A DNA stretch of 64,000 nucleotides from Verrucomicrobia bacterium UBA1319 (lineage in GTDB: Bacteria; Verrucomicrobiota; Verrucomicrobiia; Limisphaerales; UBA1319). The position numbers and the translations under genes were made by a program. The stretch lies in NCBI GenBank assembly GCA_002306985.1, contig DBTJ01000170.1:165-64164 (forward strand), in the 5' to 3' direction. The first letter of the stretch is position 1. Each line of letters starts with the position of its first letter. The notes under the pieces are model-generated. The model saw only the letters and a list, made by a program, of their open reading frames with translations. It did no database searches and had not been told where the DNA came from. This document shows, one piece after another, positions 1 to 27,706 of this stretch.

Positions 1-492
1 GTAGCACGGTTCGAGCTGTATGCGTGAAACTGACGCCGGGCGCAAATCTAGGCCCGGCCAATTGCCCCGACAACATCCATCTCCTTGTCCGCCTCGTTAC
101 CATTAGAAAACAAAGAGCCAAAAATTAGCGAGGCAATCCCATATAAAAACCCACAAAAACTGGGTTTGTGCCCCCGTGATACCCACCGATTACAACTTAC
201 TTTATCTGGTTTTAAATATGACAATTCACTACCAATATATGATTTTTATTAATATTATGGAATGATTTATGCTGCGTTATCCATGGTAATTACTTTCAAT
301 TTTATGAAATACAAACGTCTCTTCCCAAATCGTGACAGCCTAGCGATATTCGACAGAATATACTTGAATTCAACGTGTTATAGCCACAAACTGTTTTCGG
401 TTATGAATTACTTGTTCCTGGTTATCATGCTTCTTCGTAAAGCGATTGGGAATCGATGTAAACCTTCAGGAGCGATTCCCAGTTTATACGGC

Positions 493-3400
493 ATGCTTCC
501 CATCCGTTGTGGTTGGCTTGGGCTTTTTCTAATCCTGGCACCGCTCGCGCTGGCTGGGCCAACCATCGGGTTAGTGTCCAAGCCTATAGCTGGATTGCCT
601 GTCAGTGTTTCCGCCGCCGGCGACTCATATGCCTTAAACATCACCCCAAACGGCCAAAATATTCTTTTTCTAAGCTCAGCCAACAATCTAATAACCAATA
701 ACTTATGCATTGGTCTTTTTGATCTATATTTACAATGCCGCACTAACGGAGTGATTTCTTTGATCAGTGCGAATATTCAAGGAACAGGTGGCAACGACAG
801 TTCCTACTATGGAATAGCAACTCCCGATGGCCGGTTTGTCGTTTTCGAAAGTGACGCTAGTGACCTCGTAACCAATGACTTCAACGAGTCCGGCGATATT
901 TTTGTGCGCGACGTGCTCTCCGGCACCACCCGTTTGGTGAGTGTCAATCGAACCGGGAGTGGGAGCGGCAACGGTAACTCCTCAAATCCCGTGATTACAC
1001 CGGATGGGCGCTACGTGGCCTTTGTGAGTGAAGCCAGCGATTTAGTGGCGGGAGATGAAAATGGAATCCCCGATATATTTGTGCGTGATATGCAGACCGA
1101 AGAGACCATTCTGATCAGTGTCGGAGCTCAAGGAGGAACGAGTGGGGTGATCCGCGGATCGGATGCGCCCGCGATCACTCCTGACGGTCGGTTCGTCGCG
1201 TTCACCAGCGCCGCTTCCAATTTAGTGGCGAATGCCGTTTCGGCAGGGCAAGAAATATATGTTCGCGACCTGGTGGCAAATCAAACGCTTTGGGCTAGCC
1301 AAAATGCGAGCGCCAACACTCAACGCGCCGCGTATAACGTTTCGATCTCCGATGATGGAAAATACGTGGCTTTCAAGTTTTACACCGGCAAAACGTTTCA
1401 AATATATCGCGGCTCGCTGCTTGACCAAACCGTAGCGCTCGTCTGCACCAATGCAGTCGGCACTGGCTCGGTGGTTTCGGATGATTATGGCCCGATTATG
1501 ACTTCCGACGGCCGCTATTTAGTCTATTCGGAATACGGCTCCGATCAAAGCCTGCACTCCATCTGGCTTTGGGACGGCCAAACCCAGACCAAAACCTTAG
1601 CTAGCGTGTCACTAAGCGGACAACCCCTGGAAGCGGGGATTTGCGATAGCCCGGCGGTCACTCCCGACGGCCGGTATGTGGCCTTTCTAAGCAACGCCAC
1701 CAATTTGGTTGCCAATCCGGTCAATGGCGAATTCCAAGCCTACGTCCGCGACCTGCAAAGCGGCGTCACTACGCTCGCATCGGCGGATCCAGCCGGGGCT
1801 GCTTCCGGCTCAATTGATGGCAGCCTGCCGAGCCTTTCCGCGGATGGACGGTTTCTGTTATTCGACAGCCGCAGCGGGTCCTTGTGCCCCGAAGACCTCA
1901 ATGAATGCAGCGATGTTCTGCTGCGCGATTTATCCGTGCCGGTGACGGAACTCGTTTCCCGCGCCGCGCTCAGCATGCCCACTGGCGATGCTTACGCCGA
2001 CAGTATCATCGGCAATCAAGCGATGGATGCCTCCGGTCGCTATTTGGTTTTTACGAGTGAATCCGGCGATCTGGCGCCGGGCGACACCAACAAGGCCAGT
2101 GATATCTTCGTGTGCGACCTCCAAGTCGGTTCCAACACGCTGGTGAGTATCAACCAAGCCGGCACGGGCAGCGGTAATGGCGCCTCCTCGGGAGCCTCCA
2201 TTAGCGCCAATGGCCGCTATGTGGTTTTTACTAGCTTTGCCGGCGATCTGGTCCCTAACGACACCAACGAATTGACTGATATTTTCGTGCGCGACTTGGA
2301 GACCGGCGCGACACGCCTGGTTAGTGCCCGCGCCACGGGCGAAAGCCCAACCAGCACTTCACACGATGCCAGCATCAGCGCCGATGGCCGCTATGTGGCC
2401 TACTTAAGTTCTTACTCGGACACCCAAGTAACGGGCTCCGCCGCCAAGACCCACGGCAACGCTTTGCTCCGAGATCTGGTGACTGGGACCACCCGGCTGA
2501 TAGTGGCAAACACCTATCCCACCTCCTTGCAGATCAGTCCCGACGGTCGTTATGTCAGCTTTTTCCAAACAATCTCGTCCGCAGGAAATAAGCTCAGCGT
2601 GTTCGACGCGCAGACCGGTTTGATCCAATTGCTGGGAACCAGAGTCGTCGCCAACAGCTTCAGTGGGGACGGCACCAAATTGGTCTACATCGATTACTTG
2701 AATCTCACTAATTATTTAGTGGTGGTGGATTTGGCTCAGGGGACGAACGTAACCATGGCCTTGGGGCCGGGTAACTCGTCCAGGAGCCAGGCTTTGTCGG
2801 TGGGAAGCGATGGCCGTTGGGCGACGGTTTCCATTCGAGTCCCAGACGTGGGGCCGGGCACGAATCAGATCGAAAATGTGTGTCTTTGCGATATCCGCAA
2901 CGCCAATCTTGTCCTCGCCAGCGTGAACCAAACCGGCACGGCCGGCGGCAATGGCGCCAGCATTCGTCCGCGCCTCAGCAGCGACGGCCGTTATGTTGCT
3001 TTTCGCGGCACCGCCAGCGACTTGGTGGCGAACGATGTTAATGGCCTGAGCGATGTGTTTCTATTTGATCACCTGACCGGGAACACCTCATTGCTGAGTC
3101 ACGGGAAAGACGGCGTTTCCGGCGCCAATGGGTTTTCGCTAGGGGTAGCCATCGCTCCGGACGCGAAACGCGTGGTTTTCACCAGCGCGGCGTCCAATCT
3201 AGTAGATAACGACTGGAATAACGCAATCGACGTGTTTGCTTTGGAAATCGAACATGCCACGCCAAGTCCAACGGATCAACCCATCCGGCTGAGCGGCGCG
3301 ACCCAGCAGGACGGTCGGGCGACGATTCGATGGACAGCCGTTCCCGGCAATTCCTATCGCGTCCAGTATGCAGACTCACTGCAAGCATCCAACTGGCAAG

Positions 3401-3504
3401 ATCTGCCGGGAATAGTAACCATTGTGGGCGCTTCCGCTTGGCTGGTTGACGAAGTCACCCCGAGCGCTGCCCAGCGCTTCTATCGCGTGCGGACCGCCGA
3501 CTAA
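493..3504 (+). CDS. Secreted PD40/TolB-like beta-propeller repeat protein (about 16 PD40-type repeats) ending in the shared ...RFYRV C-terminal module
   Basis: The track ORF is 262..3504, but 262-492 is AT-rich and unlikely to be coding. The ATG at 493 gives a Sec-like signal, MLPIRCGWLGLFLILAPLALAGP. The unit (I/V)(T/S)PDGR(Y/F)V(A/V)FxSxASDLVxxDxNxxxDIFVRD recurs throughout. The last 73 aa (3283..3501) form the shared CTD. Confidence 0.85.
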   Translation: MLPIRCGWLGLFLILAPLALAGPTIGLVSKPIAGLPVSVSAAGDSYALNITPNGQNILFLSSANNLITNNLCIGLFDLYLQCRTNGVISLISANIQGTGGNDSSYYGIATPDGRFVVFESDASDLVTNDFNESGDIFVRDVLSGTTRLVSVNRTGSGSGNGNSSNPVITPDGRYVAFVSEASDLVAGDENGIPDIFVRDMQTEETILISVGAQGGTSGVIRGSDAPAITPDGRFVAFTSAASNLVANAVSAGQEIYVRDLVANQTLWASQNASANTQRAAYNVSISDDGKYVAFKFYTGKTFQIYRGSLLDQTVALVCTNAVGTGSVVSDDYGPIMTSDGRYLVYSEYGSDQSLHSIWLWDGQTQTKTLASVSLSGQPLEAGICDSPAVTPDGRYVAFLSNATNLVANPVNGEFQAYVRDLQSGVTTLASADPAGAASGSIDGSLPSLSADGRFLLFDSRSGSLCPEDLNECSDVLLRDLSVPVTELVSRAALSMPTGDAYADSIIGNQAMDASGRYLVFTSESGDLAPGDTNKASDIFVCDLQVGSNTLVSINQAGTGSGNGASSGASISANGRYVVFTSFAGDLVPNDTNELTDIFVRDLETGATRLVSARATGESPTSTSHDASISADGRYVAYLSSYSDTQVTGSAAKTHGNALLRDLVTGTTRLIVANTYPTSLQISPDGRYVSFFQTISSAGNKLSVFDAQTGLIQLLGTRVVANSFSGDGTKLVYIDYLNLTNYLVVVDLAQGTNVTMALGPGNSSRSQALSVGSDGRWATVSIRVPDVGPGTNQIENVCLCDIRNANLVLASVNQTGTAGGNGASIRPRLSSDGRYVAFRGTASDLVANDVNGLSDVFLFDHLTGNTSLLSHGKDGVSGANGFSLGVAIAPDAKRVVFTSAASNLVDNDWNNAIDVFALEIEHATPSPTDQPIRLSGATQQDGRATIRWTAVPGNSYRVQYADSLQASNWQDLPGIVTIVGASAWLVDEVTPSAAQRFYRVRTAD

Positions 3505-10041: not shown

Positions 10042-13000
10042 TTACTTGCCAAAGAGAGGGCTCGTCAAACGGTAATAGCGGCTGGCACTACCGGTATACA
10101 AAGAGTCCACGATCTCCACCGTTCGCCCTTCATCCGTCGCGGCGACGGCCGCCAAAACCTGCCATTGGCCCTGGTTCAGCTGATCGCAATATTGAACGGT
10201 GTACGCCCGCCCCGCCGCCGCCTTGAAGCGCAGCCGGATGGCCAGGGCCGGGGAGCGGACCCATTCGACCGTATCGATTACGGGCGCCGCCACCGCACCC
10301 ATCCCCGGGGTGCCGCCCAAGGTCGCGCTGGCGGCCCAACTGGCACCATCATTCGCGTTGGCGCTAAAGGAAGGATTTTTCCAGACGAGAGAATAACCAG
10401 CCCCGTCGGCGGCGGTAGGCCAGGATGCTTTGTCGTTATAAGTGAACGAGAACACCACCGTGTCGAGCGCATCCACCAAAGTCAGCGTTTCCCCGCCATT
10501 ATCCAAGTTGCCGGTGAACACGCCATTCACGGCGACGCCCGGATATTTGGCGGCAAGCGCTTCGGAATTGCGTGCCAATAGGAAATCCTGACCGGCGCCC
10601 AGGCGGGTCCCATTCGTGAAGGCGAAGCCGATGCCGGCCGTGAATTTAAGCCCATCCAGGCACAAGCGGTTTGTACCCGTATTAAACAGCTCGATAAAAT
10701 CATACTCGTTGCCATTGGTGGACCCCCAATCGGGCGCGTGATACATCAGTTCGCTCACGACCAGGCGACTCCAATCCTGGGTGGGATAAAACATGGCTTC
10801 CACGAGCGCGCTCCATTGGGTGCCACTGAGCGCCCTCGCCCGCACTTGGGTTGGAACCGTCACCACCAACGGGGCGAGATATAATTGCGCGGCGGCGGCA
10901 AGCACCCCGGTGCCGATTGTACGCGGGTCGGCGCCGTTGGTCGTAAAGTAAATCGCGCCGCCGCTATTGGTATGCGTGAGGGTTAAGTGAAAGTCGGCGG
11001 GCACGGAACCCCCATATTGGCTGAAGACGGGCGCCGAGATGGCGGGATATAAGCCCGCGCTTTGGAATTGCCGCAGCACGATGACGCCGCGTTGGGGCAG
11101 ATAGGTATTGAGAATCCAATCGCGCTCGGCCCGCCACTGCGCTAGGGTGCGAGGAGTGGCGGTGGTGTCATCACCCCACCGCGCCGATTCAACGAGCACG
11201 GCCGATTCGACTTGGGCGGCCAACTGACGGTAACGCTCGATGAGCGAGGCGGGCGAGAGCACGCCATCCTGAAAGAACCAGCGCTGCACGCGGTCGGCAA
11301 AATCCAGCTGGTACTCGCTTAGATTCTTCAAATAGTAATGGGGTTCACCCACCCAAGCGGCGGCGATGTCCGGGCGCGGCGCTTCCATGGTTAGGGGGGA
11401 ACGCTCTCGATTGTTGCCCATCGTGTTCTCGAAGTCCCAGGTGTAAAATTTGAAGCCGGTGCTATTGGTGGATGAGTCGCGGCCGAACCAGAAATTCTTG
11501 TTGGGCCAATCCCAATTGCCGCCCCACATGTTCAAGATCATGTAATCGATATAATTAGTTTTGTCCAAGTACACGGGAGAGGCTGGATTACGCGTTCCGT
11601 CGACGGCTTTACCCTGTAATTTCTGGTATTGAGCCAAAGTGGTGGTTTGGCTCGCCAGTTGGGTGAATTGGTTCCACGCGTCAGAATTCCCGCTTTTAAC
11701 ATCGCCCGCGTTGTTTGCGTCCCAAGCAGCCGCGTCACCCCCATAGTAACTGGCGGAGAAATCCTCATTCGGCCGCTCGGCCACGTTGTAGAGGCCCCAG
11801 TACAAGCCATTCAAATACAGGTGGACGAATCGCCCGTGAGGCGCGGCCTCGCCCATGGCCAATTGCAGGCGCCGGCCAAATTCGTCCCGGATGAACTGCA
11901 CGGTCGCGCCCGCATCCCCCCATGAATAGCCGTCATTGGCGCCGGCGCGAAACACGAGTGTATCGAAGGATTCGGCGGCGCCGCTTTCCTCGAACACGCG
12001 ATGGCGCAGTTTGGACGCCCCGTATGTTTCCTTGAAGAGCGCGCGGAAGGAGTGCTTATGCGTCACGCCCGAGTAACGGAAATAGCCACCCTGGATCCGC
12101 AAACCGCAATCCACCCGAAACTCGCTCACCTGATTGGTTCCCACCCATTCCAAGCTCACGGGCCGCTCCCAAGCCACCCCATGGCTGTCGGGATACGCGT
12201 AAATGCCGTCGCTCTCATCGAAGAGATTGGAAATTGTGGTGGTGATGAACACCGAGGGCAGCGAGCGCAGGGCATCCGTCATAGCCTCGGCGCCCACCGC
12301 GGTAATCCGGCTATCCAAGTTGTAATCCGCCGCCAATCCGGCCCACTGGGCGGGGTAACCCTCACTGATGGCGGAGGCTAGGTTTTGGGTGATCACGCTG
12401 GTAACGAAGACATAGGAGCGAGTCTCCACCGCCGAGGGAGCCCACCCGGCGCGGAACGCCGCCGCGCGCAACGGGGTGGTACGATCCACAGCGATTGGCC
12501 CGGAGTAAACCAGCCCGTTCAAAGTGTCTGGCGGCGTCCCGTTAGTGGTATACCGGATCTCGGCCCCATCGGTGGCGGTGGTGAGTTCCAGCGTGAAGGG
12601 CGCGGTGAACACCCCGGAATCCACGCTGAAGAGCGGCTTCGTTACCAACCCCAGCCAGCCGTCCGAATTGGCCGCGCCGGGGGTTGGCGCGGTAAAATAG
12701 CGCGGGCTGGAAAGCCGCGTCGAGCTGGCGGTAAGCTCCGGCAGGATGAGCAGCGTGGCGTCGTCCGCCGCAACGTTAAGCGCCTGGATTGCCAGTACAT
12801 TTTGCCCCTCGCGTAAACTTCCCAGAGCGGTGGACAAATCCATTTCCTCGCGCTCCGTGGCGGCGAGCTTCTCCGTTGCCGTGGCGTTCCAATCCAAGAC
12901 CGCGGGCGCGTTGCGACGGGCCACTTCAACTCCATTAAGGTACGCGACGAAGCCATCGTTGTAGCGCAGACTCAACGCCAACCGGTCCAGCGCGGGAGTC

Positions 13001-14217
13001 GCGGCCTCGCGCAAGGTGAACGGTAGGCGCGCCAACACGGTGGCGTTGGAGGACCCCATTGCCGCGCCGATGTCGGTCTCCAGCCAATCCGCGACGCGCG
13101 GGACGAGCGAGTTTCCGAAGACTTGCACTTCGGCCAGCGACAGCACGTCGAACTCGTCCGAATTGCCGACGCCGCCGGTGCCTGAAAGATCGGGGTCGGG
13201 CGTCCGGGTCACTCGCACCCGACCGCCCGCCACCGGCCCGCCGGTGAGCGCCTCCAGGTCGAGCGTGAGGTTATCCGGCGACTCGAGGGCATTTTCGGGA
13301 TTCAACCAGGCCGAAACAAAATTGGTGGCGGCGCCATTCGCGCTGAGCACGCGCACCGTGATGTCGCGCAAGCGCGACCCGCAACAGCTCACCCGATTCC
13401 ACAGAACGATGCGGCTGAGGCTGTAGTTGGTTCCCAAATCGACTTCCCAGGTGGCCGGCGTGTTCATCCCGGCCAGCGTATGCGTGAAGGTATTGATGTC
13501 GCCATCCACCGCGTTGCCGGAGGCATAAACAAAGTCGAGCGTGGATGATTGAGTGGTGGTTTTGCCCAAGGCCAAATTCGTGACCGCGCCCGAAGTAACG
13601 TTGGTTCCACCTCGATCAAACCCCAAGCCGACGGTCCCTTCCGTCCAGGCGGAGTCATCGAACTCCACCGCCGGCCAATCCGCCGGATAATCCGTCACAC
13701 TGCGCGGCACGCGCCATTTGGCCACCGCTCTCCTAGCGATCAACGCGAGATTGGAGACGGTCACCGACAATCCATAAGCGACTCCTTTGAATTGAGTGGG
13801 GTAGACTGGCGCGTACTCATGCGCCACCGTCATACCATCGGCTTCGATCAGCGCCAGATACCCCCCGGCGCCGCTCAAGCGAAAATTTGCGTGCAACTCC
13901 GCGCCCGCCACCGCGCGATCTTTCCCCGAGGCGAAGACCACGAGATACCCGCCCGCGGCGAGGTTCGTACTGGGAAAGGCCCACCGCCCGAAGTTGGCGC
14001 GGTCATCCGTCAAACGCCATCCGGCCAGATTCACCGGCGCCGCTCCGGCGTTATAGAGTTCAATCCAATCGGAGGCGTCCTGATCCTCATCCAGGAGGGC
14101 GCCGTCATTGAGCGCCATGAACTCGGAGATATACACGGTGTTTGCGGCCAGCGCGGGAGACGCCGAAACAACCGCCGCCAACAGGAAAATAAATACCCGC
14201 TGCAAAGAAGGCGACAT
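10042..14217 (-). CDS. Secreted CotH-kinase-family protein with two lamin-tail domains (LTD), an F5/8 type C (discoidin) domain, Fn3-associated domains and the shared C-terminal module
   Basis: Signal peptide MSPSLQRVFIFLLAAVVSASPALA. LTD1: ISEFMALNDGALLDEDQDASDWIELYNAGAAPVNLAGWRLTDD. Discoidin: NLALGKTTTQSS...AVDGDINTF...WEVDLG. CotH core: GLRIQGGYFRY..HKHSFRALFKETYG...YIDYMILNMWGGNWDWPNKNFWFGRD. LTD2: VVSELMYHAP...YDFIELFNTG. CTD at 10045..10278 ending SRYYRLTSPLFGK. Confidence 0.85.
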   Translation of the reverse strand: MSPSLQRVFIFLLAAVVSASPALAANTVYISEFMALNDGALLDEDQDASDWIELYNAGAAPVNLAGWRLTDDRANFGRWAFPSTNLAAGGYLVVFASGKDRAVAGAELHANFRLSGAGGYLALIEADGMTVAHEYAPVYPTQFKGVAYGLSVTVSNLALIARRAVAKWRVPRSVTDYPADWPAVEFDDSAWTEGTVGLGFDRGGTNVTSGAVTNLALGKTTTQSSTLDFVYASGNAVDGDINTFTHTLAGMNTPATWEVDLGTNYSLSRIVLWNRVSCCGSRLRDITVRVLSANGAATNFVSAWLNPENALESPDNLTLDLEALTGGPVAGGRVRVTRTPDPDLSGTGGVGNSDEFDVLSLAEVQVFGNSLVPRVADWLETDIGAAMGSSNATVLARLPFTLREAATPALDRLALSLRYNDGFVAYLNGVEVARRNAPAVLDWNATATEKLAATEREEMDLSTALGSLREGQNVLAIQALNVAADDATLLILPELTASSTRLSSPRYFTAPTPGAANSDGWLGLVTKPLFSVDSGVFTAPFTLELTTATDGAEIRYTTNGTPPDTLNGLVYSGPIAVDRTTPLRAAAFRAGWAPSAVETRSYVFVTSVITQNLASAISEGYPAQWAGLAADYNLDSRITAVGAEAMTDALRSLPSVFITTTISNLFDESDGIYAYPDSHGVAWERPVSLEWVGTNQVSEFRVDCGLRIQGGYFRYSGVTHKHSFRALFKETYGASKLRHRVFEESGAAESFDTLVFRAGANDGYSWGDAGATVQFIRDEFGRRLQLAMGEAAPHGRFVHLYLNGLYWGLYNVAERPNEDFSASYYGGDAAAWDANNAGDVKSGNSDAWNQFTQLASQTTTLAQYQKLQGKAVDGTRNPASPVYLDKTNYIDYMILNMWGGNWDWPNKNFWFGRDSSTNSTGFKFYTWDFENTMGNNRERSPLTMEAPRPDIAAAWVGEPHYYLKNLSEYQLDFADRVQRWFFQDGVLSPASLIERYRQLAAQVESAVLVESARWGDDTTATPRTLAQWRAERDWILNTYLPQRGVIVLRQFQSAGLYPAISAPVFSQYGGSVPADFHLTLTHTNSGGAIYFTTNGADPRTIGTGVLAAAAQLYLAPLVVTVPTQVRARALSGTQWSALVEAMFYPTQDWSRLVVSELMYHAPDWGSTNGNEYDFIELFNTGTNRLCLDGLKFTAGIGFAFTNGTRLGAGQDFLLARNSEALAAKYPGVAVNGVFTGNLDNGGETLTLVDALDTVVFSFTYNDKASWPTAADGAGYSLVWKNPSFSANANDGASWAASATLGGTPGMGAVAAPVIDTVEWVRSPALAIRLRFKAAAGRAYTVQYCDQLNQGQWQVLAAVAATDEGRTVEIVDSLYTGSASRYYRLTSPLFGK

Positions 14218-18610: not shown

Positions 18611-19422
18611 GCCTCCCGATCTTTGAAGCAAACTCATTCATTCCGTCCTAAGAGAAACCGGACGACCGGCCCGGAGGTTTCGCTATCGGCGCGCGTCCAC
18701 GCGAGCCTTCTCTTTTATAAACACTTACAAACTTTAAAATTGCGACAACTAACATATTACGCAACTCCGCTTGCATCTCGGTGTTTACTATCTGGCGGCG
18801 GCGAGGCGATTGGACCGGCGTAAGGTCGACCGACACGTTTAAATGACGGCGGAGATATAGGAAAAACCAATTCTGATAATTTTGAAAATTGATGACCTGA
18901 ATGGGAGCGGGTTTCATCGATCTTTATGTCTATTAAACACAATGATCGAGCCAGCTCGCCTAACCGGGATCTCCCGCTTGAGGGTGGAACCGGGAAGGTA
19001 AACCCGCCAACTGCCGGAGATTTGGGTTATACTTTGGTTTGCAGGATGTTCGGTGGCGAAAAGCTTTGCTGCAACCTTTCGTGGTTCTCCGTTGTCCAGC
19101 CTTCAATAAGACGAATTTTTAAGGTCTGGTTTTCCCCAGTGGCTGGCGGCGTCTCAGCCGATATTTTGACGCTAATTCCACACCTCATTCCCAGCATTTG
19201 GAATCACCCATTTTCGCAAGTCACTGTCCCGGCGAACACTCGTAATTTTTGGATTGGCACCGTTTTTGCTACGATAATCGTTAGCTACAACCAAACGCCG
19301 CCAGGGCGGCAAGGAAAACACCAAGGCACACACCTGATTGGGCCTGAAAGAAGCTGGCCCGTAAAAAAAATGCTTCGATTCGAGTGGGGGTATTGCGGTT
19401 AATTGGAAGACGAAAACAAAAT

Positions 19423-22197
19423 ATGAAGAGTATCAAAGGCTGGATGCTGAATTGGCCCGTGTTTCGAACCGGAAACTCCTGGGGTCATCTACCTGCCCAT
19501 CGAATCATGGTTGTCTTGTGGCTTGCTCAAACCCTGGTAGCCGGAGTTCTGGCAGCAGACACAAATTATTCGCGGCGGGTGGAGTTTTTAGAGCCCCAGC
19601 GCACGGTTTACTACCTCGATCCCACCAGCACGACAACGAACGCCTCCCCGGCAAAATCTTCCCTGTCGAGCGGCAAAGATACCTGGACTCGCGCGGTAAA
19701 ATCTAAAGGAGCGTCAAATTCGATATATTTTGGCAGTCGACTCGTCCTTAAGACCAAAACCGGGACTAATGTGGAGGCTGTGATTTCCGGACGCGGGCTG
19801 CAAATCGCCCGCGAATTGCCCAACGGCATTTACATATTGCAGGCTACCAATAGCGCCGCCGCCATTGATGCCGCCGAAGCCCTGGCCAAAGAACCGGGTG
19901 TCACCATCAGTTATCCGGTGGCCCGACGCGCGGCCCAAAAACTGGGCCGTTTCTCCGCCAAACCAAACGACACCTATTTTTCCAAGCTCTGGTATTTGGA
20001 AAATCGCGATGACAATGGCACCCCGCTCGGCATCGACCTGAACACCCGCGAAGCGTGGTCCGAGACCACAGGCAAAGGCATTATTGTGGCGATCGCCGAT
20101 GACGGTGTGGACTTAACCCATCCCGACCTAGCCGCTAACGTAACCACCGGACCGCACCACAACTTCGATGACAGCTCCGCTGATGCCAACCCCCAATTTA
20201 GCGATTCCAACCACGGCACCCCGGTGGCAGGACTGGTCGGCGCGGTGGGTAACAACGGTGTGGGCGTCTCGGGCGTCGCGCCTCAAGTCTCGCTGGCCAG
20301 CTGGGTTATTTGGGGTTCCCCCATCGGCGGCAGCGATCAAATTATCAGCGACGAAGCGCTTATGGAGATGTTTCAATACCAGTCCAACGTGGTATCGATT
20401 CAAAACCACAGCTGGGGCAACGCCAGCGGCACTCAATCCGGCATCGACGCTTTGAGCGACATTGGCATCGCCAACGCCGTCACCAAAGGTCGCGATGGAA
20501 AAGGCGCCGTGATCGTGCGCGCCGGCGGCAATATGCGCTTACCCCTCGATTACGGAACCTACGTCGTGGCCGGGATGAATGCCAACGACGACGGATTCGC
20601 CAGCGACCCACGGGTGATCGCGGTGGCCGCCGCGCGGTATGACGGGCTTTTTTGCAGATATTCCTCTCCCGGAGCTTGCCTCCTGGTAGGGGCGCCCAGC
20701 GGCGACCCGGACCAGGACTATGGCACCGAAGATCCCGCCGCTCCCAACCTTATGACCACCGACCGACAAGGTTCGGCGGGCTACAACTCGAGCAGTTCAG
20801 GCGCGGGCAATAACTATTGCTTCGGAGATACGGGTTTCAATGGCACCTCGGCGGCCACGCCGGAAATCAGTGGGGTGGCCGCCTTAATCCTCTCGGTCAA
20901 CACCAACCTCACCTACCGCGACGTGCAGCAAGTCTTGCTTCAATCCGCGCATTACCTGAACACGAACGACGGCGATTTGCACACGAATGCGGCGGGATTC
21001 ACGATCGGGCATAATCTTGGTTACGGCGTTCCCGACGCGGGATTTGCGGTCGCCCTGGCGAAACATTGGTCGAACCGGCCGGCCGCCACCGAAGTGACGT
21101 TCGGCCCGGCGTCCGCCTTGCCCGCAATTCCCACCAACGCCCTCCGGGTGGTATGTGGCGGCGAAGGTATCGACGCGGCGCTCACCTCGATCAGCTGCTG
21201 GCCAAGCGATGGCGTCCATGCCGACGCCTCCACCGCGGCCCTGCCACTGGTTTACGTGGGCCAGGCTACCAACACCCTTACCGTGGATTTAAAAGGCAAG
21301 GCGGCGTTGATCCAGCGCGGGGTGAATTACTTTGAGGACAAAATCAACCATGCCGCGGCGGCGGGCGCGGCGTTCGTTATTATTTTCGACAACACCACCT
21401 CCACCACCCGCGTGTTGATGCAGGCGCCCTTCGCTTCCATCCCGGCGGTTTTCATCAATAAAGCCAGCGGCGAAGCGTTGCGCGATTATGCGCAAAGCCA
21501 GCCCGACAATACCGCGCAAATCGTTTACTCGCCCGCCACCGCCACGTTCGAGGTGACCAATACGCTCGCTTGCGAGCATGTGGGCTTGAAATTGACCACC
21601 ACTTCCACTTCGCGCGGCGACCTGCATATTGCCTTGGTCTCGCCTTCCGGTACGCGCAGCGTGCTCCAAAACATCACCACCGACGACTCTTCGGCTCCGG
21701 ACGGCTGGACCTTCTGGTCCGTGCACCACTTTTACGAAAGCAGCGTGGGCCAGTGGAAACTTGAAATTGGCAATGAATTATCGGCTTCGACCAACGTAGT
21801 TACCGAAGCCCAGCTCATAATTCAAGGCGTGGCGATCACCGATACCGACCACGATGGTTTGGATGACAATTGGGAAATGGCCAAGTTCGGCACGCTGGCG
21901 TACGACCTAACCGACGATCCCGATGGCGATGGCTATAGCAACGCTCGCGAGCAATGCCTGGACACCAATCCGTCGGTCTACGATCCCATCCTGGGTTTTG
22001 ACATTTCGTACTGGGATTCCAGCCACGTCCGGATTGCGTTGCCGGCGAAATCGGGCGCCAGTTACAATGTTCTGTCCACCTCTAACCTAAGCCAGACTCC
22101 CACGGTGGTGACGAATGTGGCGGGCCGCTTGCCGGAAGTGGAAGTCGTGGTGCCAGCCACGACTAACGCCTTCTTTTACTTGGTCCCCACGCGGTAA
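19423..22197 (+). CDS. Secreted S8 subtilase of kexin/furin type with PA domain, proprotein-convertase P-domain, TSP3-like Ca-binding repeats and a divergent copy of the shared C-terminal module
   Basis: Catalytic triad contexts: VAIADDGVDLTHPDL, HGTPVAGLVGAVGNNGVGVSGVAP, GTSAATPEISGVAALI. PA domain: LKGKAALIQRGVNYFEDKINHAAAAGAAFVIIFDN. P-domain: CEHVGLKLTTTSTSRGDLHIALVSPSGTRSVLQ...WTFWSVHHFYESSVGQWKLEI. TSP3-like: DTDHDGLDDNWE..DDPDGDGYSNAREQ. The start could be 19423 or a downstream ATG (MVVLWLAQTLVAGVLAAD). Confidence 0.85.
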   Translation: MKSIKGWMLNWPVFRTGNSWGHLPAHRIMVVLWLAQTLVAGVLAADTNYSRRVEFLEPQRTVYYLDPTSTTTNASPAKSSLSSGKDTWTRAVKSKGASNSIYFGSRLVLKTKTGTNVEAVISGRGLQIARELPNGIYILQATNSAAAIDAAEALAKEPGVTISYPVARRAAQKLGRFSAKPNDTYFSKLWYLENRDDNGTPLGIDLNTREAWSETTGKGIIVAIADDGVDLTHPDLAANVTTGPHHNFDDSSADANPQFSDSNHGTPVAGLVGAVGNNGVGVSGVAPQVSLASWVIWGSPIGGSDQIISDEALMEMFQYQSNVVSIQNHSWGNASGTQSGIDALSDIGIANAVTKGRDGKGAVIVRAGGNMRLPLDYGTYVVAGMNANDDGFASDPRVIAVAAARYDGLFCRYSSPGACLLVGAPSGDPDQDYGTEDPAAPNLMTTDRQGSAGYNSSSSGAGNNYCFGDTGFNGTSAATPEISGVAALILSVNTNLTYRDVQQVLLQSAHYLNTNDGDLHTNAAGFTIGHNLGYGVPDAGFAVALAKHWSNRPAATEVTFGPASALPAIPTNALRVVCGGEGIDAALTSISCWPSDGVHADASTAALPLVYVGQATNTLTVDLKGKAALIQRGVNYFEDKINHAAAAGAAFVIIFDNTTSTTRVLMQAPFASIPAVFINKASGEALRDYAQSQPDNTAQIVYSPATATFEVTNTLACEHVGLKLTTTSTSRGDLHIALVSPSGTRSVLQNITTDDSSAPDGWTFWSVHHFYESSVGQWKLEIGNELSASTNVVTEAQLIIQGVAITDTDHDGLDDNWEMAKFGTLAYDLTDDPDGDGYSNAREQCLDTNPSVYDPILGFDISYWDSSHVRIALPAKSGASYNVLSTSNLSQTPTVVTNVAGRLPEVEVVVPATTNAFFYLVPTR

Positions 22198-22284: not shown

Positions 22285-22306
22285 CGGCGCGCGTTTGCGC
22301 GCGCCG
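22285..22306. terminator. GC-rich hairpin (CGGCGCGCG-TTTG-CGCGCGCCG) between the two protease genes; its T-tract lies on the minus-strand side
   Basis: Read directly: a 9-bp perfect stem. The plus strand has AAAAAACGAA before and CTCTTGG after. The minus strand therefore reads stem + TTCGTTTTTTAT, a canonical intrinsic terminator, although both flanking genes are on the plus strand. Confidence 0.6.
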
Positions 22307-22384
22307 CTCTTGGTATCCCCCCCCCATCCGCCACGCTTGCCGATTGAACTTATGGCAGACGGACAATTATTGAGGAGCAACTGT

Positions 22385-25300
22385 ATGGAGAACCGCAAGT
22401 CTGTCCTCCCGAAATGGGCGGATATTTGCCTACTCTTGGTTTTATTCGCCAGCGCGGGCTTCGGAGCGCCGGCGCCCCGCTACCGTTCGGACCGCATCTT
22501 AATCCAGCCAAAGGCGGGGGAAGATTCCGGAACGCTCGCGAAAAAACACGCCGCCAAAGGGGTATCCATCCTGCACGAATACGGCAACCTGCGCCATCTC
22601 CAAGTCTTGGGGCTGGCCACCAACATGGAGGTGCTGGAGACGGTCCGCGAGTATCAAGAAAGCGGGCTGGTGGAGTACGCGGAACCCGATTACATTCTGC
22701 GCGCCTCGCTGGAGCCAAACGATCCGAGTTTCACTAGCGGCACCTTGTGGGGCCTAAAAAACACCGGGCAAAGCGGCGGCCGAGCGGGCGTTGATATTGC
22801 CGCGACCAACGGTTGGGCCATCACGCATGACGCTTCCTCGGTGGTCGTCGCCGTAATCGATACCGGCGTCCGTTACACGCACCAAGATCTAGCCTCCAAC
22901 ATGTGGATCAATCCCAAAGTGGTGGCGGGCAGCGGCGTCAGTCCCTATGGCACCAATGTGCTGGGCGTAAACAAAGATCCCATGGATGATGGCGGCCATG
23001 GCACCCATGTGGCCGGCATTATTGGGGCCGTGGGCAACGACGGGGTGGGGGTGGTGGGCGTGGCTTGGAAAGTCCAAATCATGGCCCTGAAATTCCTGGA
23101 TAGCACGGGGAGCGGCTCGCTTTCCGACGCCATTCGCTGCCTTGATTATGCCCGGCAAAACGGCGCCCACATCGTCAACGCCAGCTGGGGTGACACTAAT
23201 TTTTCGCTCTCGCTTTACAACGCCATCGAACAAACTCGGCAGGCGGGCATTATCTTGGTGGCGGCCGCCGCCAACGATGGTCTGAACACTGACGTGTACC
23301 CCAATTATCCATCGGGCTATCCTTTGGATAACGTGGTGTCGGTGGGAGCGATCGATCGCTATGGCGACCTCCCCTCCTATTCGAATTACGGCGCCCGGAC
23401 AGTCCACTTGGCGGCCCCCGGCTCCGCGATCTATTCCTGCTGGTACACCAGCGACTCGCAATACGCCACCGCCTCGGGCACATCCATGGCGACGCCTTAC
23501 GTGGCCGGTGTTTTGGCGTTACTCAAATCCACTTATCCGACGGAAAATTACCGTCAGCTCATCGCCCGGCTGATGGCCAACACCACGCCACTAACCACGC
23601 TTGACCGGAAATGCGTCTCCGGTGGAATGGCCAATCTCGCCGCCGCCTTGAGCGCGGAAACGGTGCCCAGTTTTACCGCCTCCGCTTACGCCGGCAGCGC
23701 GCCCTTACAACTCTGGGTCACCAACACCTCCATCGGCGCGACGGGCTGTCGTTGGGATTTTGGCGATGGCTCCCCGGCGGTCACTGACACCACGCCCTCC
23801 CACGCCTATGCCACTCCGGGCTTTTACACCACGACCCTCACAATCACCAACCGCTCGGGGACCGCCATTTCCACCGCGCGTGAAATTGCCGTTTTAGATA
23901 ATTATCTAATGCAATCGACCAACTACAATTGGATCGATACCAGCCTTTTGAGCCGGGTGACCTTGACCACCAACGACATTAGCGACGCGGTCTCCCTCCC
24001 GTTTCCCTTCGTGTTCTATGGTAAAACCAACACGCAACTTTACATCGGCGCCAATGGCATTCTGGGATTCAAAGCGGCGGAATTGAATCTGGCCGATAAT
24101 GTTAATTTCCCCAGCGTGCAAACCCCGCACGGAGTGATCTGCCCGTACTGGGATGGACTATCCGTGCCCAGCAGCGGCGGAATATATGCGGGCGCGGTGG
24201 GCGAGGCGCCTAACCGCAAAATGGTCATCTCTTGGGTGGGGGTGTACAGTTCATCCGCTCCGCTCACCTTTCAAGCCGTGCTCAGCGAAGGCTCGCCCAA
24301 TATCCTATTCCAATACAAGGAAGTTACCCCTAACAATTCCCGCGGAGCCGGTCGTCGGGCCACCGTGGGGATCGAAGATGATTCAGGCACCGTCTGCGCC
24401 AAGTATACGTATAACGGATCGCCCTCGATACTCGCCAATCAACAAGCCTGGTTGTTTACCCCGCAAGTTTTCGTGTATGAGCCCCCCACCGTGGCTTTGA
24501 CCAGCCCCACCAACGGCACAGTGTTGACCGCCCCGGCTAGCTTGGCTTTAACCGCCGAGGCGGCCAGCACTGGCAGTGTCATCACCCAAGTTGAGTTCTT
24601 GGCGGGTACCCAGTCTTTAGGAATCGACACCACTAGCCCGTACCAACTGGCCTTCTCCAGCTTAGGCTCGGGCACCTATGCTCTGACGGCAAAAGCCACC
24701 GATGCCAAGGGCGCATCCACCACCTCTGCCCCCATTCAGATCACCATCGACCAGCCGCCAGTGGTAGCCATTGCCAACCTAGCCGATGGCGGCAGAGTTT
24801 CCGCTTCCAACCCATTGACGTTGGTGGCGGAGGCAACCGATAGCGATGGCCAGGTGATAACCATCGAGTTTTATTCGGGAACGAACTTGCTAGGCATAAC
24901 CAGCGGCAACCAACCAAGTGTCACGCTCCAGGCGTTTCCCGAGGGAGTCTATATCCTATCGGCCCGAGCCGTGGACGATCTGGGCATTGCCACGATTTCC
25001 CCTGCCATCACCATCACTTCCGTGGCCCCCCCAACCGTCACTTTGACGGCCCCTGTGGACGGAGCCCAATTTTCCGGGGCGACCGCGCTTTCCTTGCAGG
25101 CACAAGCGTTCAACACCGGCGCGGCGGTGACCCAAGTTGAGTTTTTCGCCGGCGCCAACCTCTTAGGGATTGCCACCCATAGCCCCTATAGCTTGGAGGT
25201 TTCGAGTCTAACCGCGGGCCGGTACCGCCTGACCGCTCGAGCCACCGATGAGTTGGGAGGTATCGGTTGGTCCAGCGCAGCCAACATCGTCATCGACCAG

Positions 25301-27706
25301 CCACCCAGCGTATCGCTCATAGCCCCGGCCAACGGGGCGCGCTATTCCACGGCAGCCACGGTCGACTTGAAAGCGGAAGCCAGCGACGCGGATAATCCGG
25401 TGGCCTATGTTGAATTTTACGAAGGCACCACCCTTTTGGGCGTGGTTTCCAATAGCCCGTACAGCCTGAAATTAACCGCTCTTCCGGCAAACGAACACCC
25501 TTTCACGGCACGCGCGGTGGACACCTTGGGAGTGACGAGTATTTCGAGTTCGATCACCATCACCTCGGTTCCCCCGCCGGCTGTGGCTTTGAACTACCCC
25601 ACCAATGGATCGTTATTCCTAACTTCGGATTCGCTGTCGCTTCAAGCCAGCGCCACCAGCACCGGAGCAACCGTGCTCCAAGTGGAATTTTTCGTCGGCG
25701 CCAACTCCCTCGGCACAGTCACGAATAGCCCGTATACCTTAAGCATTGCCCCGCTTGAAACCGGCGCTCATCCACTCACCGCCAGGGCCACGGACGAACT
25801 GGGAGGAACCGGGTTCTCGGAAATTGTGAACATCGTCGTCGATCAACCGCCCAGCGTTTCCCTCCTCAGCCCCGCCAATACGGCGCGTTACGCCTCCGCC
25901 AGTCCCCTCACCTTGCAAGCGGCGGCGACCGATAGCGATGGCGCCATTGCCCGAGTGGAGTTTTACGCCAGCGCCAATCTGCTCGGAACGGTCACCAACC
26001 CGCCTTTCAACCTGGCCCTGGAGCCATTGCCCGCTGGCGACTACACCATCTTCGCAAAAGCCGTGGATAATTGGGGGGTAGCCACCGTTTCCAGCTCGAT
26101 AACCATCACCTCCATACCTCCGCCAACCATTGCTTTAACCGCGCCCGCCGCTGGCGCCGTGCTAGCGGCGCCGGCGAATTTCACCCTAGAGACTAGCCTG
26201 TCAAACACTGGGGCCGCGGTGGTGCAAGTCGAATTCTTCGCCGGCGCCCAATCGCTGGGCACGTCGAGCAATAGCCCATTCTCCGTACCGATTACCAATT
26301 TGCCAGCGGGAACTTACTCACTCAGTGCCCGAGCCACCGATGAACTGGGAGGCGCTGGCGTATCCAGCAATGTAAATATCGTAATCGACCAACCCCCGTC
26401 CGCAACCATGTCCTCGCCCATCAATGGGGCGCGAGTTTCCGCTTCGCTGCCGCTACTTTTGCGAACGGAGGCAACCGATGCGGACGGCTCGGTGGCGCGC
26501 GTGGAATTTTACTCCGGTACCAATTTATTGGGAGTCGTCACCAACACGCCTTTTACATTCTCACTGGTCCCACCCTCGGCGGGTGCCTGCGAATTTTCCA
26601 CCCGAGCGATCGACAACTGGGGCATCGCCTCCGCTGCAAGCGCGATCACCATTACGTCCGTACCCCCACCCTTAGTGGCATTAATCACCCCTACCAACGG
26701 CACCGTGCTGGCGGCTCCGGCTACTATCACTTTGCGGGCGGATCTCCTAAGCTCCAACGCCGCCATCTCGCAGGTCGAATTCTTTGCGGGCGCCAATTCC
26801 CTGGGCATTGCAAGCTTCAGCCCCTTTGCCATTCAAGTTGCCAACCTGACCGCGGGAACCTATAGCTTGAGCGCGATAGCAACCGATGAGTTGGGAGGCA
26901 CCGGCATATCCGGCAACACGCCCCTGCTCGTCGACCAACCGCCAACCGTAGCGCTGCTGAGTCCAACGAACACCGCTCGTTTCTCGACTTTCACTCCAGT
27001 CACTTTGCGGGCCGACGCAGCCGACACGGACGGCCAGGTGGCATATGTGGAATTTTATACGGGCGACCAACTTCTTGGAACCGTCACCAACAGTCCTTAT
27101 AGCCTCGCTATTGGCGCGCTTACGGCGGGCGAATACAACCTCAAGCTCCGGGCGGTCGATGATCTGGGCATTGCGGCCATGTCCAGCCCCATCGTCATCA
27201 CTTCCGTGCCCCCGCCTTCGGTCACCCTGGAAATCCTCGATACCAACGCGGCCTTTACCGCGCCCGCCACGGTGAAACTCCAAGCCACCGCCACCAGCCC
27301 GGGCGTCACCATCGCGCAAATCGAATTCTTTGAATCGCTCGTTTCCTGGGGCTCACTCCCGACCAATCCAAGCGTATTGGTGGTTTCTGATTTGCCGGCG
27401 GGGCATTATTCCCTCACGGCGCAAGCGACCGATGAACTCGGCGGCGTGGGCGTCTCCTCTCCGCTCAATTTCACCGTGGAAGCCGCAACCCCCATCCGGC
27501 TGCTTTCCGTTGAAACACTAAAAAACGGCGGATTTCAATTCCTCGTCATCGGACTGCCCGCCAATAGCGTCGTCGTCATCGAGGCCTCCACCAACTTGAT
27601 CGATTGGACAAGTATAACCACGCAAAGCGCGAGCGGCATTTCCCTATCTTTCACCGACACCAATGTCATCGCCTTTCCCGCCAGATATTATCGCGTGGTA
27701 AAATAA
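22385..27706 (+). CDS. Secreted S8 subtilase (I9 propeptide, catalytic domain, PKD domain, NIDO-like domain) fused to 11 tandem Ig-like domains and the shared C-terminal module
   Basis: Signal peptide MENRKSVLPKWADICLLLVLFASAGFG. Catalytic triad contexts VAVIDTGVRYTHQDL, HGTHVAGIIGAVGNDGVGVVGVA, SGTSMATPYVAGVLALL. PKD: CRWDFGDGSPAVTDTTPSHAYATPGFYTTTLTI. NIDO-like: LPFPFVFYGKTNTQLYIGANGILGF...CPYWDGL. The repeats follow, and the CTD at 27491..27703 ends ARYYRVVK. Confidence 0.85.
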   Translation: MENRKSVLPKWADICLLLVLFASAGFGAPAPRYRSDRILIQPKAGEDSGTLAKKHAAKGVSILHEYGNLRHLQVLGLATNMEVLETVREYQESGLVEYAEPDYILRASLEPNDPSFTSGTLWGLKNTGQSGGRAGVDIAATNGWAITHDASSVVVAVIDTGVRYTHQDLASNMWINPKVVAGSGVSPYGTNVLGVNKDPMDDGGHGTHVAGIIGAVGNDGVGVVGVAWKVQIMALKFLDSTGSGSLSDAIRCLDYARQNGAHIVNASWGDTNFSLSLYNAIEQTRQAGIILVAAAANDGLNTDVYPNYPSGYPLDNVVSVGAIDRYGDLPSYSNYGARTVHLAAPGSAIYSCWYTSDSQYATASGTSMATPYVAGVLALLKSTYPTENYRQLIARLMANTTPLTTLDRKCVSGGMANLAAALSAETVPSFTASAYAGSAPLQLWVTNTSIGATGCRWDFGDGSPAVTDTTPSHAYATPGFYTTTLTITNRSGTAISTAREIAVLDNYLMQSTNYNWIDTSLLSRVTLTTNDISDAVSLPFPFVFYGKTNTQLYIGANGILGFKAAELNLADNVNFPSVQTPHGVICPYWDGLSVPSSGGIYAGAVGEAPNRKMVISWVGVYSSSAPLTFQAVLSEGSPNILFQYKEVTPNNSRGAGRRATVGIEDDSGTVCAKYTYNGSPSILANQQAWLFTPQVFVYEPPTVALTSPTNGTVLTAPASLALTAEAASTGSVITQVEFLAGTQSLGIDTTSPYQLAFSSLGSGTYALTAKATDAKGASTTSAPIQITIDQPPVVAIANLADGGRVSASNPLTLVAEATDSDGQVITIEFYSGTNLLGITSGNQPSVTLQAFPEGVYILSARAVDDLGIATISPAITITSVAPPTVTLTAPVDGAQFSGATALSLQAQAFNTGAAVTQVEFFAGANLLGIATHSPYSLEVSSLTAGRYRLTARATDELGGIGWSSAANIVIDQPPSVSLIAPANGARYSTAATVDLKAEASDADNPVAYVEFYEGTTLLGVVSNSPYSLKLTALPANEHPFTARAVDTLGVTSISSSITITSVPPPAVALNYPTNGSLFLTSDSLSLQASATSTGATVLQVEFFVGANSLGTVTNSPYTLSIAPLETGAHPLTARATDELGGTGFSEIVNIVVDQPPSVSLLSPANTARYASASPLTLQAAATDSDGAIARVEFYASANLLGTVTNPPFNLALEPLPAGDYTIFAKAVDNWGVATVSSSITITSIPPPTIALTAPAAGAVLAAPANFTLETSLSNTGAAVVQVEFFAGAQSLGTSSNSPFSVPITNLPAGTYSLSARATDELGGAGVSSNVNIVIDQPPSATMSSPINGARVSASLPLLLRTEATDADGSVARVEFYSGTNLLGVVTNTPFTFSLVPPSAGACEFSTRAIDNWGIASAASAITITSVPPPLVALITPTNGTVLAAPATITLRADLLSSNAAISQVEFFAGANSLGIASFSPFAIQVANLTAGTYSLSAIATDELGGTGISGNTPLLVDQPPTVALLSPTNTARFSTFTPVTLRADAADTDGQVAYVEFYTGDQLLGTVTNSPYSLAIGALTAGEYNLKLRAVDDLGIAAMSSPIVITSVPPPSVTLEILDTNAAFTAPATVKLQATATSPGVTIAQIEFFESLVSWGSLPTNPSVLVVSDLPAGHYSLTAQATDELGGVGVSSPLNFTVEAATPIRLLSVETLKNGGFQFLVIGLPANSVVVIEASTNLIDWTSITTQSASGISLSFTDTNVIAFPARYYRVVK
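24482..27480 (+). repeat. In-frame tandem array, period about 546 bp (two-domain A+B Ig-like cassette), 5.5 copies
   Basis: A-units start at about 24482, 25024, 25568, 26113, 26660 and 27205 (PPTVALTSPTNG.., PPTVTLTAPVDG.., PPPAVALNYPTNG.., PPPTIALTAPAAG.., PPPLVALITPTNG.., PPPSVTLEILDT..). B-units start at IDQPP(V/S).. and end ITITSVPPP. About half of the residues look conserved between copies by eye, so the repeats are diverged and not recent. Confidence 0.85.

Follow-up and report, generated by a model that had tools for sequence, protein, structure and literature searches.

Four proteins of otherwise different architecture, encoded in the window (the whole 64-kb stretch of DNA analysed here), end in what are, by sequence, copies of one domain of ~70-75 residues. 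It belongs to a very large and predominantly terminal family of PVC bacteria, mainly Verrucomicrobiota, which has no Pfam or NCBIfam entry. We tentatively read this module, with slightly less than even confidence, as an envelope-targeting C-terminal domain that follows the logic of the T9SS CTD without being homologous to it. Coordinates of the modules and of their carriers are collected in Table 1.

Table 1. C-terminal modules and carrier proteins in the window
Feature	Position	Strand	Remarks
FYR-type C-terminal module, subtilase 2	27482..27703	+	ends ...ARYYRVVK; stop at 27704-27706; outside-only profile E=3.3e-21 to 2.8e-20 (aa 1736-1808 of the stop-to-stop ORF)
FYR-type C-terminal module, PD40 protein	3277..3501	+	ends ...QRFYRVRTAD; outside-only profile E=1.8e-13 to 1.9e-13
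FYR-type C-terminal module, CotH/LTD protein	10045..10287	-	ends ...SRYYRLTSPLFGK; outside-only profile E=1.3e-9 to 5.6e-9
FYR-type C-terminal module, Calx-beta/DUF5122/PKD adhesin	56941..57144	-	ends ...QRFYRVSTP; outside-only profile E=5.3e-16 to 5.7e-15
C-terminal tail, subtilase 1	21988..22194	+	unsupported as a copy; at best decayed, or an unrelated small beta-rich tail
Carrier 1, subtilase 2	22385..27706	+	Pfam scan; signal peptide 22385-22465, MENRKSVLPKWADICLLLVLFASAGFG, read from sequence
Carrier 2, PD40 beta-propeller repeat protein	493..3504	+	Pfam PD40 E=7.6e-24; likely true start 493; signal peptide 493-558, MLPIRCGWLGLFLILAPLALAG
Carrier 3, CotH/LTD protein	10042..14217	-	Pfam scan; signal peptide 14146-14217, MSPSLQRVFIFLLAAVVSASPALA
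Carrier 4, giant adhesin	56938..63999	-	PKD, Calx-beta x10, DUF5122 x6, module (Pfam scan)

The homology was established by searching all six reading frames of the window with a profile made of 30 sequences, none of them from the window. The tails of subtilase 2, the adhesin, the PD40 protein and the CotH/LTD protein were its only matches, the next best having an E-value of 0.5. That this outside-only profile recovers exactly four tails argues for true homology and excludes chance. Pairwise identity between the four is 22-36%, and leave-one-out tests with three-sequence HMMs gave weak results (E=3e-6, 0.01, 0.09 and 0.7). The CotH/LTD copy is a member of the YTVQY subfamily, the same subfamily that was recovered from metagenomes. 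The signature of the domain reads G-x-x-Y/V-x-V-E/Q-A/Y-S-x-N/D-L-x-x-W ... D ... R-F/Y-Y-R-V/L. Across an alignment of 34 sequences RFYR never varies at its R, Y and R, and conservation is 90% or higher at L, W, F and V; 92% of terminal copies have Asp at the acidic position of the motif. The motif drawn earlier in the sequence-only reading was thus broadly correct. Its five tail translations were exact, each tail closing a long ORF.

That reading had counted five proteins with the module, the fifth being subtilase 1. Four of them are upheld by the outside-only profile and subtilase 1 is not, so that the density is four copies in 64 kb instead of five. The subtilase 1 tail was matched neither by the tail HMMs nor by the outside-only profile, its alignment to the module with hhalign reached a probability of 1.6% (E=0.031, 35 columns), a homologue search found none, and its single-sequence AF2 model is poor (pLDDT 61). 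On these four grounds it was rejected as a fifth copy. It could nevertheless be a decayed one, because it has the same place and length, a GxxYxV..SxNL stretch, and FYxV near the stop.

The carriers have little else in common. Subtilase 2 consists of a signal peptide, a fervidolysin-like prodomain, Peptidase_S8, PKD, ~11 Big_7 domains and the module (Pfam scan), and carrier 3 of a signal peptide, two LTD, F5/8 type C, CHB_HEX_C/Fn3_assoc, CotH and the module. The N-terminus of the giant adhesin lies beyond the window, its stop-to-stop frame reaching the window end; as called on another contig bearing the adjacent gene, its product has 2854 aa. A signal peptide is present in all 4 window proteins whose N-terminus is visible (subtilase 1 included). 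Outside the window, 72 of 90 carriers were scored positive against 242 of 663 control ORFs, with a heuristic so crude that several of the scored negatives visibly carry a signal peptide. The passengers are unrelated and diverse: proteases, CotH, adhesins and BspA-type LRR_5 proteins. The proposal that one module is common to otherwise unrelated signal-peptide proteins was therefore borne out. The LRR paralogues also include more divergent copies, ending in RFFRL(R/H)R(P/Q), which are missed by the profile; a search among the LRR paralogues for a different terminal sorting signal ('choice of anchor') found none.

At E<=1e-3 the family comprises at least 58,810 representative clusters (50% identity), and 9,728 at E<=1e-10. 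Its main concentration is among Limisphaerales/Pedosphaera-group Verrucomicrobiota; one carrier, an ORF of 6593 aa, comes from a MAG labelled Omnitrophota. Genomes hold many paralogues: with one narrow pattern alone, two MAGs yielded 5 loci apiece, and 26 bystander carriers were counted in 1.23 Mb. The database names of these proteins derive from the passengers alone. Pfam and NCBIfam scans detected no family covering the five tails (E<=10), nor any model covering nine multi-copy family members (E<=1); no curated model, whether of sorting domains, of FN3 or of anything else, was matched. A profile search of PDB sequences gave nothing below E=0.087, and in the literature searched on Verrucomicrobial C-terminal sorting domains and on the RFYRV motif no account of the module was found. 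From the AF2 model of the subtilase 2 copy (pLDDT 92.2), it is confidently predicted to fold independently into a six-strand beta-sandwich. When this model was compared with the PDB using Foldseek, no match reached E<=1e-3 and only generic FN3/Ig matches appeared.

The position of the module was examined in two samples. In a phylogenetically lumpy genome sample (one passenger family is common to 73 of 95 carriers), seeded with the mid-domain peptide VV[VI]EASTNL (subfamily alignment), the module lies at most 5 residues from the stop in 92 of 98 complete ORFs, whereas random placement would put ~1% of modules at an ORF end. The 6 exceptions have 79-545 residues beyond it, and 93 of 99 carriers have a single copy. 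In a metagenome sample, seeded with a query lacking the last strand (subfamily alignment), all 17 full modules were terminal. In a separate set, 71 of 71 word-index matches end in RFYRV. This confirms the C-terminal bias suspected from the window: an internal frequency similar to the terminal one was not seen, nor was a match to an already known sorting domain. The stronger expectation, that the module is exclusively C-terminal, did not hold. Among the best-scoring 150 representatives, 149 entered the array analysis, and all 149 have 2-11 tandem copies, 138 of them ending with a copy. These arrays are mostly near the C-terminal end, and some proteins are dominated by them: P0077 packs 8 copies into 802 aa, for example, and P0072 has 5. 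In 344 internal copies the W is kept in 99% and RFYR in 70-83%. This means that the RFYR strand is a signature of the fold and not itself a terminal tag.

What sets terminal copies apart is found downstream of this strand. In ~80% of them, 4-5 residues follow FYR, and 51-76% (four datasets) have Pro at the very end, compared to ~10% of control ORFs; internal copies have no Pro at +4. In the window, 3 of the 4 tails end in a residue other than Pro. This terminal-specific tail of 4-5 residues is new support in favour of the sorting route proposed from the window alone.

Compared to known systems, the module resembles the T9SS type A CTD (TIGR04183 / PF18962, Por_Secre_tail) in several respects: it is a beta-sandwich of ~70-80 residues, stands last (92/98 and 17/17) in proteins with a Sec signal peptide, has diverse passengers that include BspA-type LRR proteins and proteases, and is lineage-restricted with many paralogues per genome. 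BspA-type LRR proteins of Tannerella bear a classical T9SS CTD (PMC8869499). Unlike the T9SS CTD, however, the module has no sequence match to Por_Secre_tail (five tails at E<=10, nine members at E<=1), and no T9SS CTD structure was present in the 50 best fold matches listed. Its hosts are Verrucomicrobiota and not Bacteroidota/FCB, it occurs in tandem arrays (2-11), sometimes internally, and it has its own W/RFYR signature and Pro-ended tail. To our knowledge, T9SS CTDs occur as single copies, and T9SS is not known in Verrucomicrobiota. A 2026 paper independently raises the possibility of a T9SS-like CTD system in Akkermansia, a member of this phylum (PMC13524802). Other C-terminal signals are more remote. 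PEP-CTERM, LPXTG and GlyGly-CTERM had been set aside for lack of a terminal TM helix or basic tail, and both the sequence, with no TM segment or charged tail, and NCBIfam, with no match to any of the three, agree; in contrast to PEP-CTERM/exosortase substrates (TIGR02595), module tails end 3-8 residues past a beta-strand, without a hydrophobic helix. PPC (PF04151) is likewise a C-terminal beta-sandwich of ~70 residues on secreted proteases, sometimes duplicated; a role in secretion or binding is assumed for it, followed by removal upon maturation. Yet carriers and tails have no PF04151 match, and the passengers of the module extend far beyond peptidases.

For an envelope-targeting domain, the steps could be as follows. 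The Sec signal peptide would bring the carrier to the periplasm, and a lineage-specific outer-membrane partner would recognise the folded terminal domain together with its short, usually Pro-ended tail. Through this recognition unrelated passengers (proteases, CotH, BspA-type LRR proteins, adhesins) would be exported to the cell surface and/or kept there. We infer that such a partner and route exist and that the module decides localisation, being subsequently cleaved or retained.

A candidate that we take seriously, while finding it somewhat unlikely, is a module that is retained for binding or assembly and plays no part in translocation. It would attach to the surface of its own cell (LPS, capsule glycan, surface protein) or to itself, so that passengers are held non-covalently or assembled on array scaffolds, as with SLH, CWB, LysM, choline-binding repeats and dockerin-cohesin. 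The dockerin, SLH, CWB and choline-binding modules act by binding a surface partner, and like the module they mostly sit at the C-terminus of many unrelated exported proteins within one lineage, sometimes as arrays. Mostly C-terminal arrays of 2-11 copies, up to proteins that are mostly array (P0077, P0072), are typical of avidity anchors; they also weigh against a pure export tag, because such a tag needs none. On the other hand, a single copy in 93/99 carriers provides little avidity, and the fold and sequence of the module are unrelated to those of dockerin (Ca-binding, helical) and SLH (helical), the host being diderm. The terminal Pro suits a domain which is kept in the mature protein and has to resist exopeptidases, and could simply shield a retained extracellular domain from carboxypeptidases, but a lectin needs no fixed tail length to a free C-terminus. 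Some resemblance to carbohydrate-binding domains exists: a short central motif, YxVxxSxD/N..W, is common to the module and to CBM32 or F5/8 type C (discoidin) domains, the profile gave a sub-threshold match (E=0.09, ~40 residues) to the discoidin (CBM32) domain of a Paenibacillus glucanase/chitosanase, F5_F8_type_C appeared on one family member at E=0.18, and AlcCBM31 fragments were also sub-threshold. However, a discoidin domain is twice as large as the module, no fold-level match is significant, no CBM, lectin or anchor family is matched significantly, and carbohydrate-active enzymes are not the main passengers. A binding module and an envelope-targeting one would equally be expected to sit at the C-terminus of diverse passengers with signal peptides. 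That the module is instead a generic FN3/Ig-like structural domain, an end-cap or spacer that serves folding and stability and has no other function in common, seems quite improbable to us. It is a small, arrayable, all-beta sandwich, as are FN3, Big and PKD domains in their arrays, Foldseek ranks FN3 scaffolds and Ig-like domains as its nearest, though non-significant, neighbours (TMq 0.5-0.64, E>=0.08, probability up to 0.98), internal copies show weak, sub-threshold Tissue_fac (FN3 clan) fragments, and the signature is retained in these copies. Six strands are predicted for it, the FN3 and Ig fold being a seven-strand Greek key. But the module stays below Pfam thresholds for fn3 (PF00041) and any Ig family. 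Moreover, a spacer need not be last in 94-100% of carriers, nor bear a fixed-length, Pro-ended tail specific to terminal copies, a feature that spacers lack; Big_7, PKD and Calx-beta sit internally in the very same window carriers (Pfam scan).

The genes surrounding the carriers bear on one further mechanism. No candidate export machinery was found in the window or adjoining 73 related loci; neither T9SS machinery (SprA/Sov, PorV, PorU, GldKLMN) nor the T2SS core genes GspD/E/F are encoded in the 64-kb window. Most of the apparent 'recurrent families' at the 73 loci are antisense shadows of LRR carriers. The genuine recurrent neighbours are DUF1559 pseudopilin-like proteins, ABC ATPases, histidine kinases, ECF sigma factors and BamB-like proteins, which we rejected as evidence of machinery because they are ordinary expanded PVC families. 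An S41/PDZ peptidase at 6222-8516, considered as a reader of the C-terminus, is not recurrent near carriers. We regard it as very improbable that the module is a recognition handle, in the periplasm, for a type II secretion-like (pseudopilin-based) PVC system. T2SS substrates fold in the periplasm, which suits a folded beta-sandwich, and the commonest genuine neighbour is a protein with prepilin-type N_methyl and DUF1559 (10/73 loci). The DUF1559 family is greatly expanded in PVC bacteria, though, and if this expansion holds, the ~9 per Mb at the loci would be the background level. We know of no T2SS that uses a modular C-terminal signal, and the absence of GspD/E/F from the window also speaks against it. 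In Omnitrophota (PVC), T2SS-like loci are reported to adjoin the genes of giant extracellular proteins (bioRxiv 10.1101/2023.11.21.568195), which favours this mechanism, as does the 6593-aa carrier from the Omnitrophota-labelled MAG.

Soil, fresh water and peat are rich in Verrucomicrobiota and their PVC relatives. How the very large sets of proteases, adhesins and polymer-degrading enzymes of these bacteria pass the outer membrane and stay on the cell is largely unexplained, and the module bears on this question. Since a large terminal family has no Pfam or NCBIfam entry, its proteins being named after their passengers, it represents a large annotation gap; it is also a ready classifier for the exported and surface proteome of Verrucomicrobiota and PVC relatives, and a concrete hook toward a partner or machinery. 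It is an unlikely but conceivable extension of the envelope-targeting reading that Verrucomicrobiota and some other PVC bacteria possess an undescribed pathway of outer-membrane export and surface attachment, analogous and unrelated to T9SS, which reads the FYR domain and its Pro-ended tail. If so, the cargo of this pathway may amount to dozens to more than 100 proteins per genome, and the FYR domain would be a handle for finding its machinery.

Five long ORFs of the window had been read as ending in one C-terminal module of ~70 residues, closed by an RFYRV-like strand. All five translations were exact, each tail terminating a long ORF (table below), and a Pfam scan of the carriers agreed that their passengers, i.e. 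the remainder of these proteins, are unrelated to each other. Pairwise identity between the tails is 22-36%, and tiny leave-one-out HMMs built from them gave marginal E values (3e-6, 0.01, 0.09 and 0.7). The decisive test was a profile made from 30 outside sequences only, run on the six-frame translation of the window. Exactly four tails were recovered, those of subtilase 2 (E=3.3e-21), the adhesin (5.3e-16), the PD40 protein (1.8e-13) and the CotH protein (1.3e-9); the next-best match had E=0.5, and no internal copy was found by this profile in the six frames. The tail of subtilase 1 was missed by the HMMs, including the outside-only profile, hhalign gave it a probability of 1.6%, a search for homologues was empty, and its single-sequence model was poor (pLDDT 61). 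The sequence-only reading of a single shared module therefore holds for four tails, not five.

Carriers, neighbouring genes of the window and ORFs of two related loci
Feature	Position	Strand	Remark
PD40 protein ORF	262..3504	+	ends in tail
S41 peptidase	6222-8516	+	Tricorn_C1 and PDZ domains; between two cargo genes
CotH/LTD protein ORF	10042..14217	-	ends in tail
ExbB-family gene, directly followed by gene for 393-aa protein	15469-17276	-	393-aa protein with weak TonB_C match only; pair lies between CotH and subtilase cargo genes
158-aa ORF	18926-19402	+	no Pfam match; just upstream of subtilase 1
Subtilase 1 ORF	19384..22197	+	ends in tail
Subtilase 2 ORF	22295..27706	+	ends in tail
506-aa ORF	42983-44503	-	no Pfam match; inside glycosyltransferase cluster
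829-aa signal-peptide protein	45988-48477	+	hydrazine-synthase-alpha middle domain, PD40 repeat, cytochrome c haem motifs
BamB-like PQQ_2 propeller	49217-50686	-	
895-aa protein	51320-54007	-	N-terminal TPR repeats, then long ankyrin run; adjoins two-component system
Calx-beta/DUF5122/PKD adhesin ORF	56938..>63999	-	ends in tail; gene called on another contig, 2854 aa
Pro-ended terminus of adhesin tail	56941-56952		
Related locus L047, ORF	9826-12717	+	generated strand coordinates; ends ...NRFFRLHRQ
Related locus L047, adjoining ORF	12558-14345	+	generated strand coordinates; ends ...NRFFRLRRP
Related locus L043, open frame	2-19780	+	6593 aa, N-terminally incomplete, module at end

An exhaustive profile search over 1.84 billion cluster representatives returned 58,810 family members at E<=1e-3, 9,728 at E<=1e-10 and 155 at E<=1e-30. 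Source names of these sequences, where given, describe only the passenger ('proprotein convertase P-domain', 'RCC1 family', 'PKD repeat protein'). The two adjoining ORFs of L047 end in more divergent forms of the module, both missed by the profile at E<=1e-3, meaning that the counts underestimate the family. When one genome per GTDB species was scanned with the mid-domain peptide VV[VI]EASTNL, 73 loci were found, nearly all in Verrucomicrobiota MAGs (subdivision 3, Limisphaerales, Pedosphaera), a few being labelled Omnitrophota, Lentisphaerales, Pontiella or Binatia, or evidently mislabelled. The window is of verrucomicrobial origin: its QueA shares ~62% identity with proteins named Limisphaerales and Pedosphaera. 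The giant carrier of L043, from a MAG labelled Omnitrophota, connects the module family with PVC giant proteins.

The position of the module was measured in a genome and a metagenome sample, whose seeds carry no stop-codon information. Translated in six frames, the 73 genome loci (1.23 Mb) gave 99 ORFs in which the profile of the 34-sequence family alignment found the module, as a single copy in 93 of them. A real stop is present in 98 of these ORFs; in 92 the module lies at most 4 residues from the end, and 6 run on for 79-545 residues. As 73 of 95 carriers have one common passenger family, the BspA-type LRR_5 proteins, this sample amounts to ~20 independent architectures. For the metagenome sample, the query came from the YTVQY subfamily, to which the CotH copy belongs, and was cut short of its last strand. 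In all 17 complete modules the (F/Y)YR strand is present and a stop lies no more than 5 residues from the module envelope; one additional locus gave a partial match only. By chance, a 75-residue domain in proteins of ~600 residues would lie this close to the end (<=5 residues) in ~1% of cases. Word-index matches ended in RFYRV plus 0-3 residues in 71/71 cases.

The module is thus C-terminal as had been proposed, but not exclusively so. The best 150 of the family representatives all had more than one matched stretch, and the 149 analysed carry 2-11 copies each, usually packed against the C-terminus, with a copy at the very end in 138. In 344 internal copies the Trp is kept in 99% and R-F-Y-R in 70-83%, so that the RFYR strand marks the fold and does not by itself tag the terminus. 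Two proteins of the family, P0073 (2290 aa) and P0153 (1100 aa), repeat part of the module (profile positions ~26-73) at a strict spacing of 199 residues, P0073 doing so 11 times; there the module sits inside a larger repeat unit.

What follows the strand is specific to the terminus. Across 307 terminal copies, (F/Y)YR is followed by 4 residues in 56% and by 5 in 24%, and Pro is the final residue in 60% (51% for word-index matches, 56% for representatives, 69% for genome loci and 76% for metagenome loci), against ~10% of control ORFs from the same loci. No Pro enrichment was seen at +4 of internal copies. Since the Pro-ended tail is restricted to terminal copies, selection acts on the free C-terminus itself. 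In the window, only the adhesin tail ends in Pro. S41 enzymes of the Prc/Ctp type that bear a PDZ domain recognise C-terminal residues, and the S41/PDZ peptidase of the window is, speculatively, a candidate reader of the conserved tail; clustering of ORFs from the 73 loci did not find it recurring near carriers elsewhere.

AlphaFold2 gave a confident model of the module from the 34-sequence alignment (pLDDT 92.2, pTM 0.76), a six-strand beta-sandwich with RFYRV as its last strand. Pfam and NCBIfam had no match to the tails at E<=10, and on proteins with 2-8 copies they gave no covering model, only sub-threshold fragments (Tissue_fac, AlcCBM31, choice_anch_C, F5_F8_type_C). The profile search of PDB sequences yielded no chain that is a significant relative, its best match (E=0.087) being ~40 residues of a CBM32-type discoidin domain. 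Foldseek returned nothing at E<=1e-3; the best neighbours were FN3 scaffolds and Ig-like domains (TMq 0.5-0.64), and the T9SS CTD was absent from the best 50 matches. Membership of PPC, fn3 or CBM32 was rejected, and the most fitting description of the module is a derived FN3/Ig-like sandwich constituting its own family.

Signal peptides are directly readable in the PD40 protein, the CotH protein and subtilase 2, and also in subtilase 1. A crude heuristic was positive for 72/90 carriers against 242/663 control ORFs; several of the 'negatives' plainly bear a signal peptide. No recognisable secretion system was found in the 64-kb window, which holds housekeeping genes (trpA, queA, a phosphoglycerate mutase), a glycosyltransferase-rich polysaccharide cluster (~35-46 kb), an AsmA/DUF748 protein, a two-component system and the further genes of the table. 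No ORF of ExbD size is among the listed ORFs of at least 150 aa. The long ankyrin run of the 895-aa protein would not be expected in a bacterium. Clustering all ORFs of the 73 loci produced mostly antisense shadows of LRR genes. The genuine recurrent neighbours were N_methyl/DUF1559 pseudopilin-like (prepilin-type) proteins, in 10/73 loci, an ABC ATPase, histidine kinases and an ECF sigma factor; BamB-like propellers lie near carriers in 4 loci, as in the window. These are presumably ordinary expanded PVC families and were not counted as evidence of machinery, the DUF1559-type and BamB-like neighbours being probably background.

How is the module used? We tentatively favour, at somewhat under even chances, a C-terminal domain that targets its carriers to the envelope and is recognised by a partner specific to the lineage. 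A module retained for surface binding or assembly, a reading not cleanly separable from envelope targeting, is the less probable of the two, and is favoured by the tandem arrays and the protective terminal Pro. The positional data speak against a generic structural cap, which we find improbable. The sub-case of a handle for a T2SS-like system is speculative and very doubtful.

The combination of features seen here is the one by which the T9SS CTD and PEP-CTERM-type signals were earlier recognised: a last domain on signal-peptide proteins with unrelated passengers, many paralogues per genome, lineage restriction and a terminal-specific tail. Passengers also overlap classical T9SS cargo in the BspA-type proteins, Tannerella BspA bearing a T9SS CTD (PMC8869499), and a 2026 paper, based on a single Akkermansia sulfatase, proposes that this phylum may possess a T9SS-like system (PMC13524802). 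Membership of the T9SS CTD family was rejected (model unmatched, wrong phylum, arrays present), and the tails have neither TM helix nor basic tail, confirming that they are not PEP-CTERM, LPXTG or GlyGly-CTERM signals. The likeness to a T9SS CTD or a dockerin-type module would lie at the level of architecture. The module is a real and very widespread C-terminal cargo domain on exported proteins, its function being putative.
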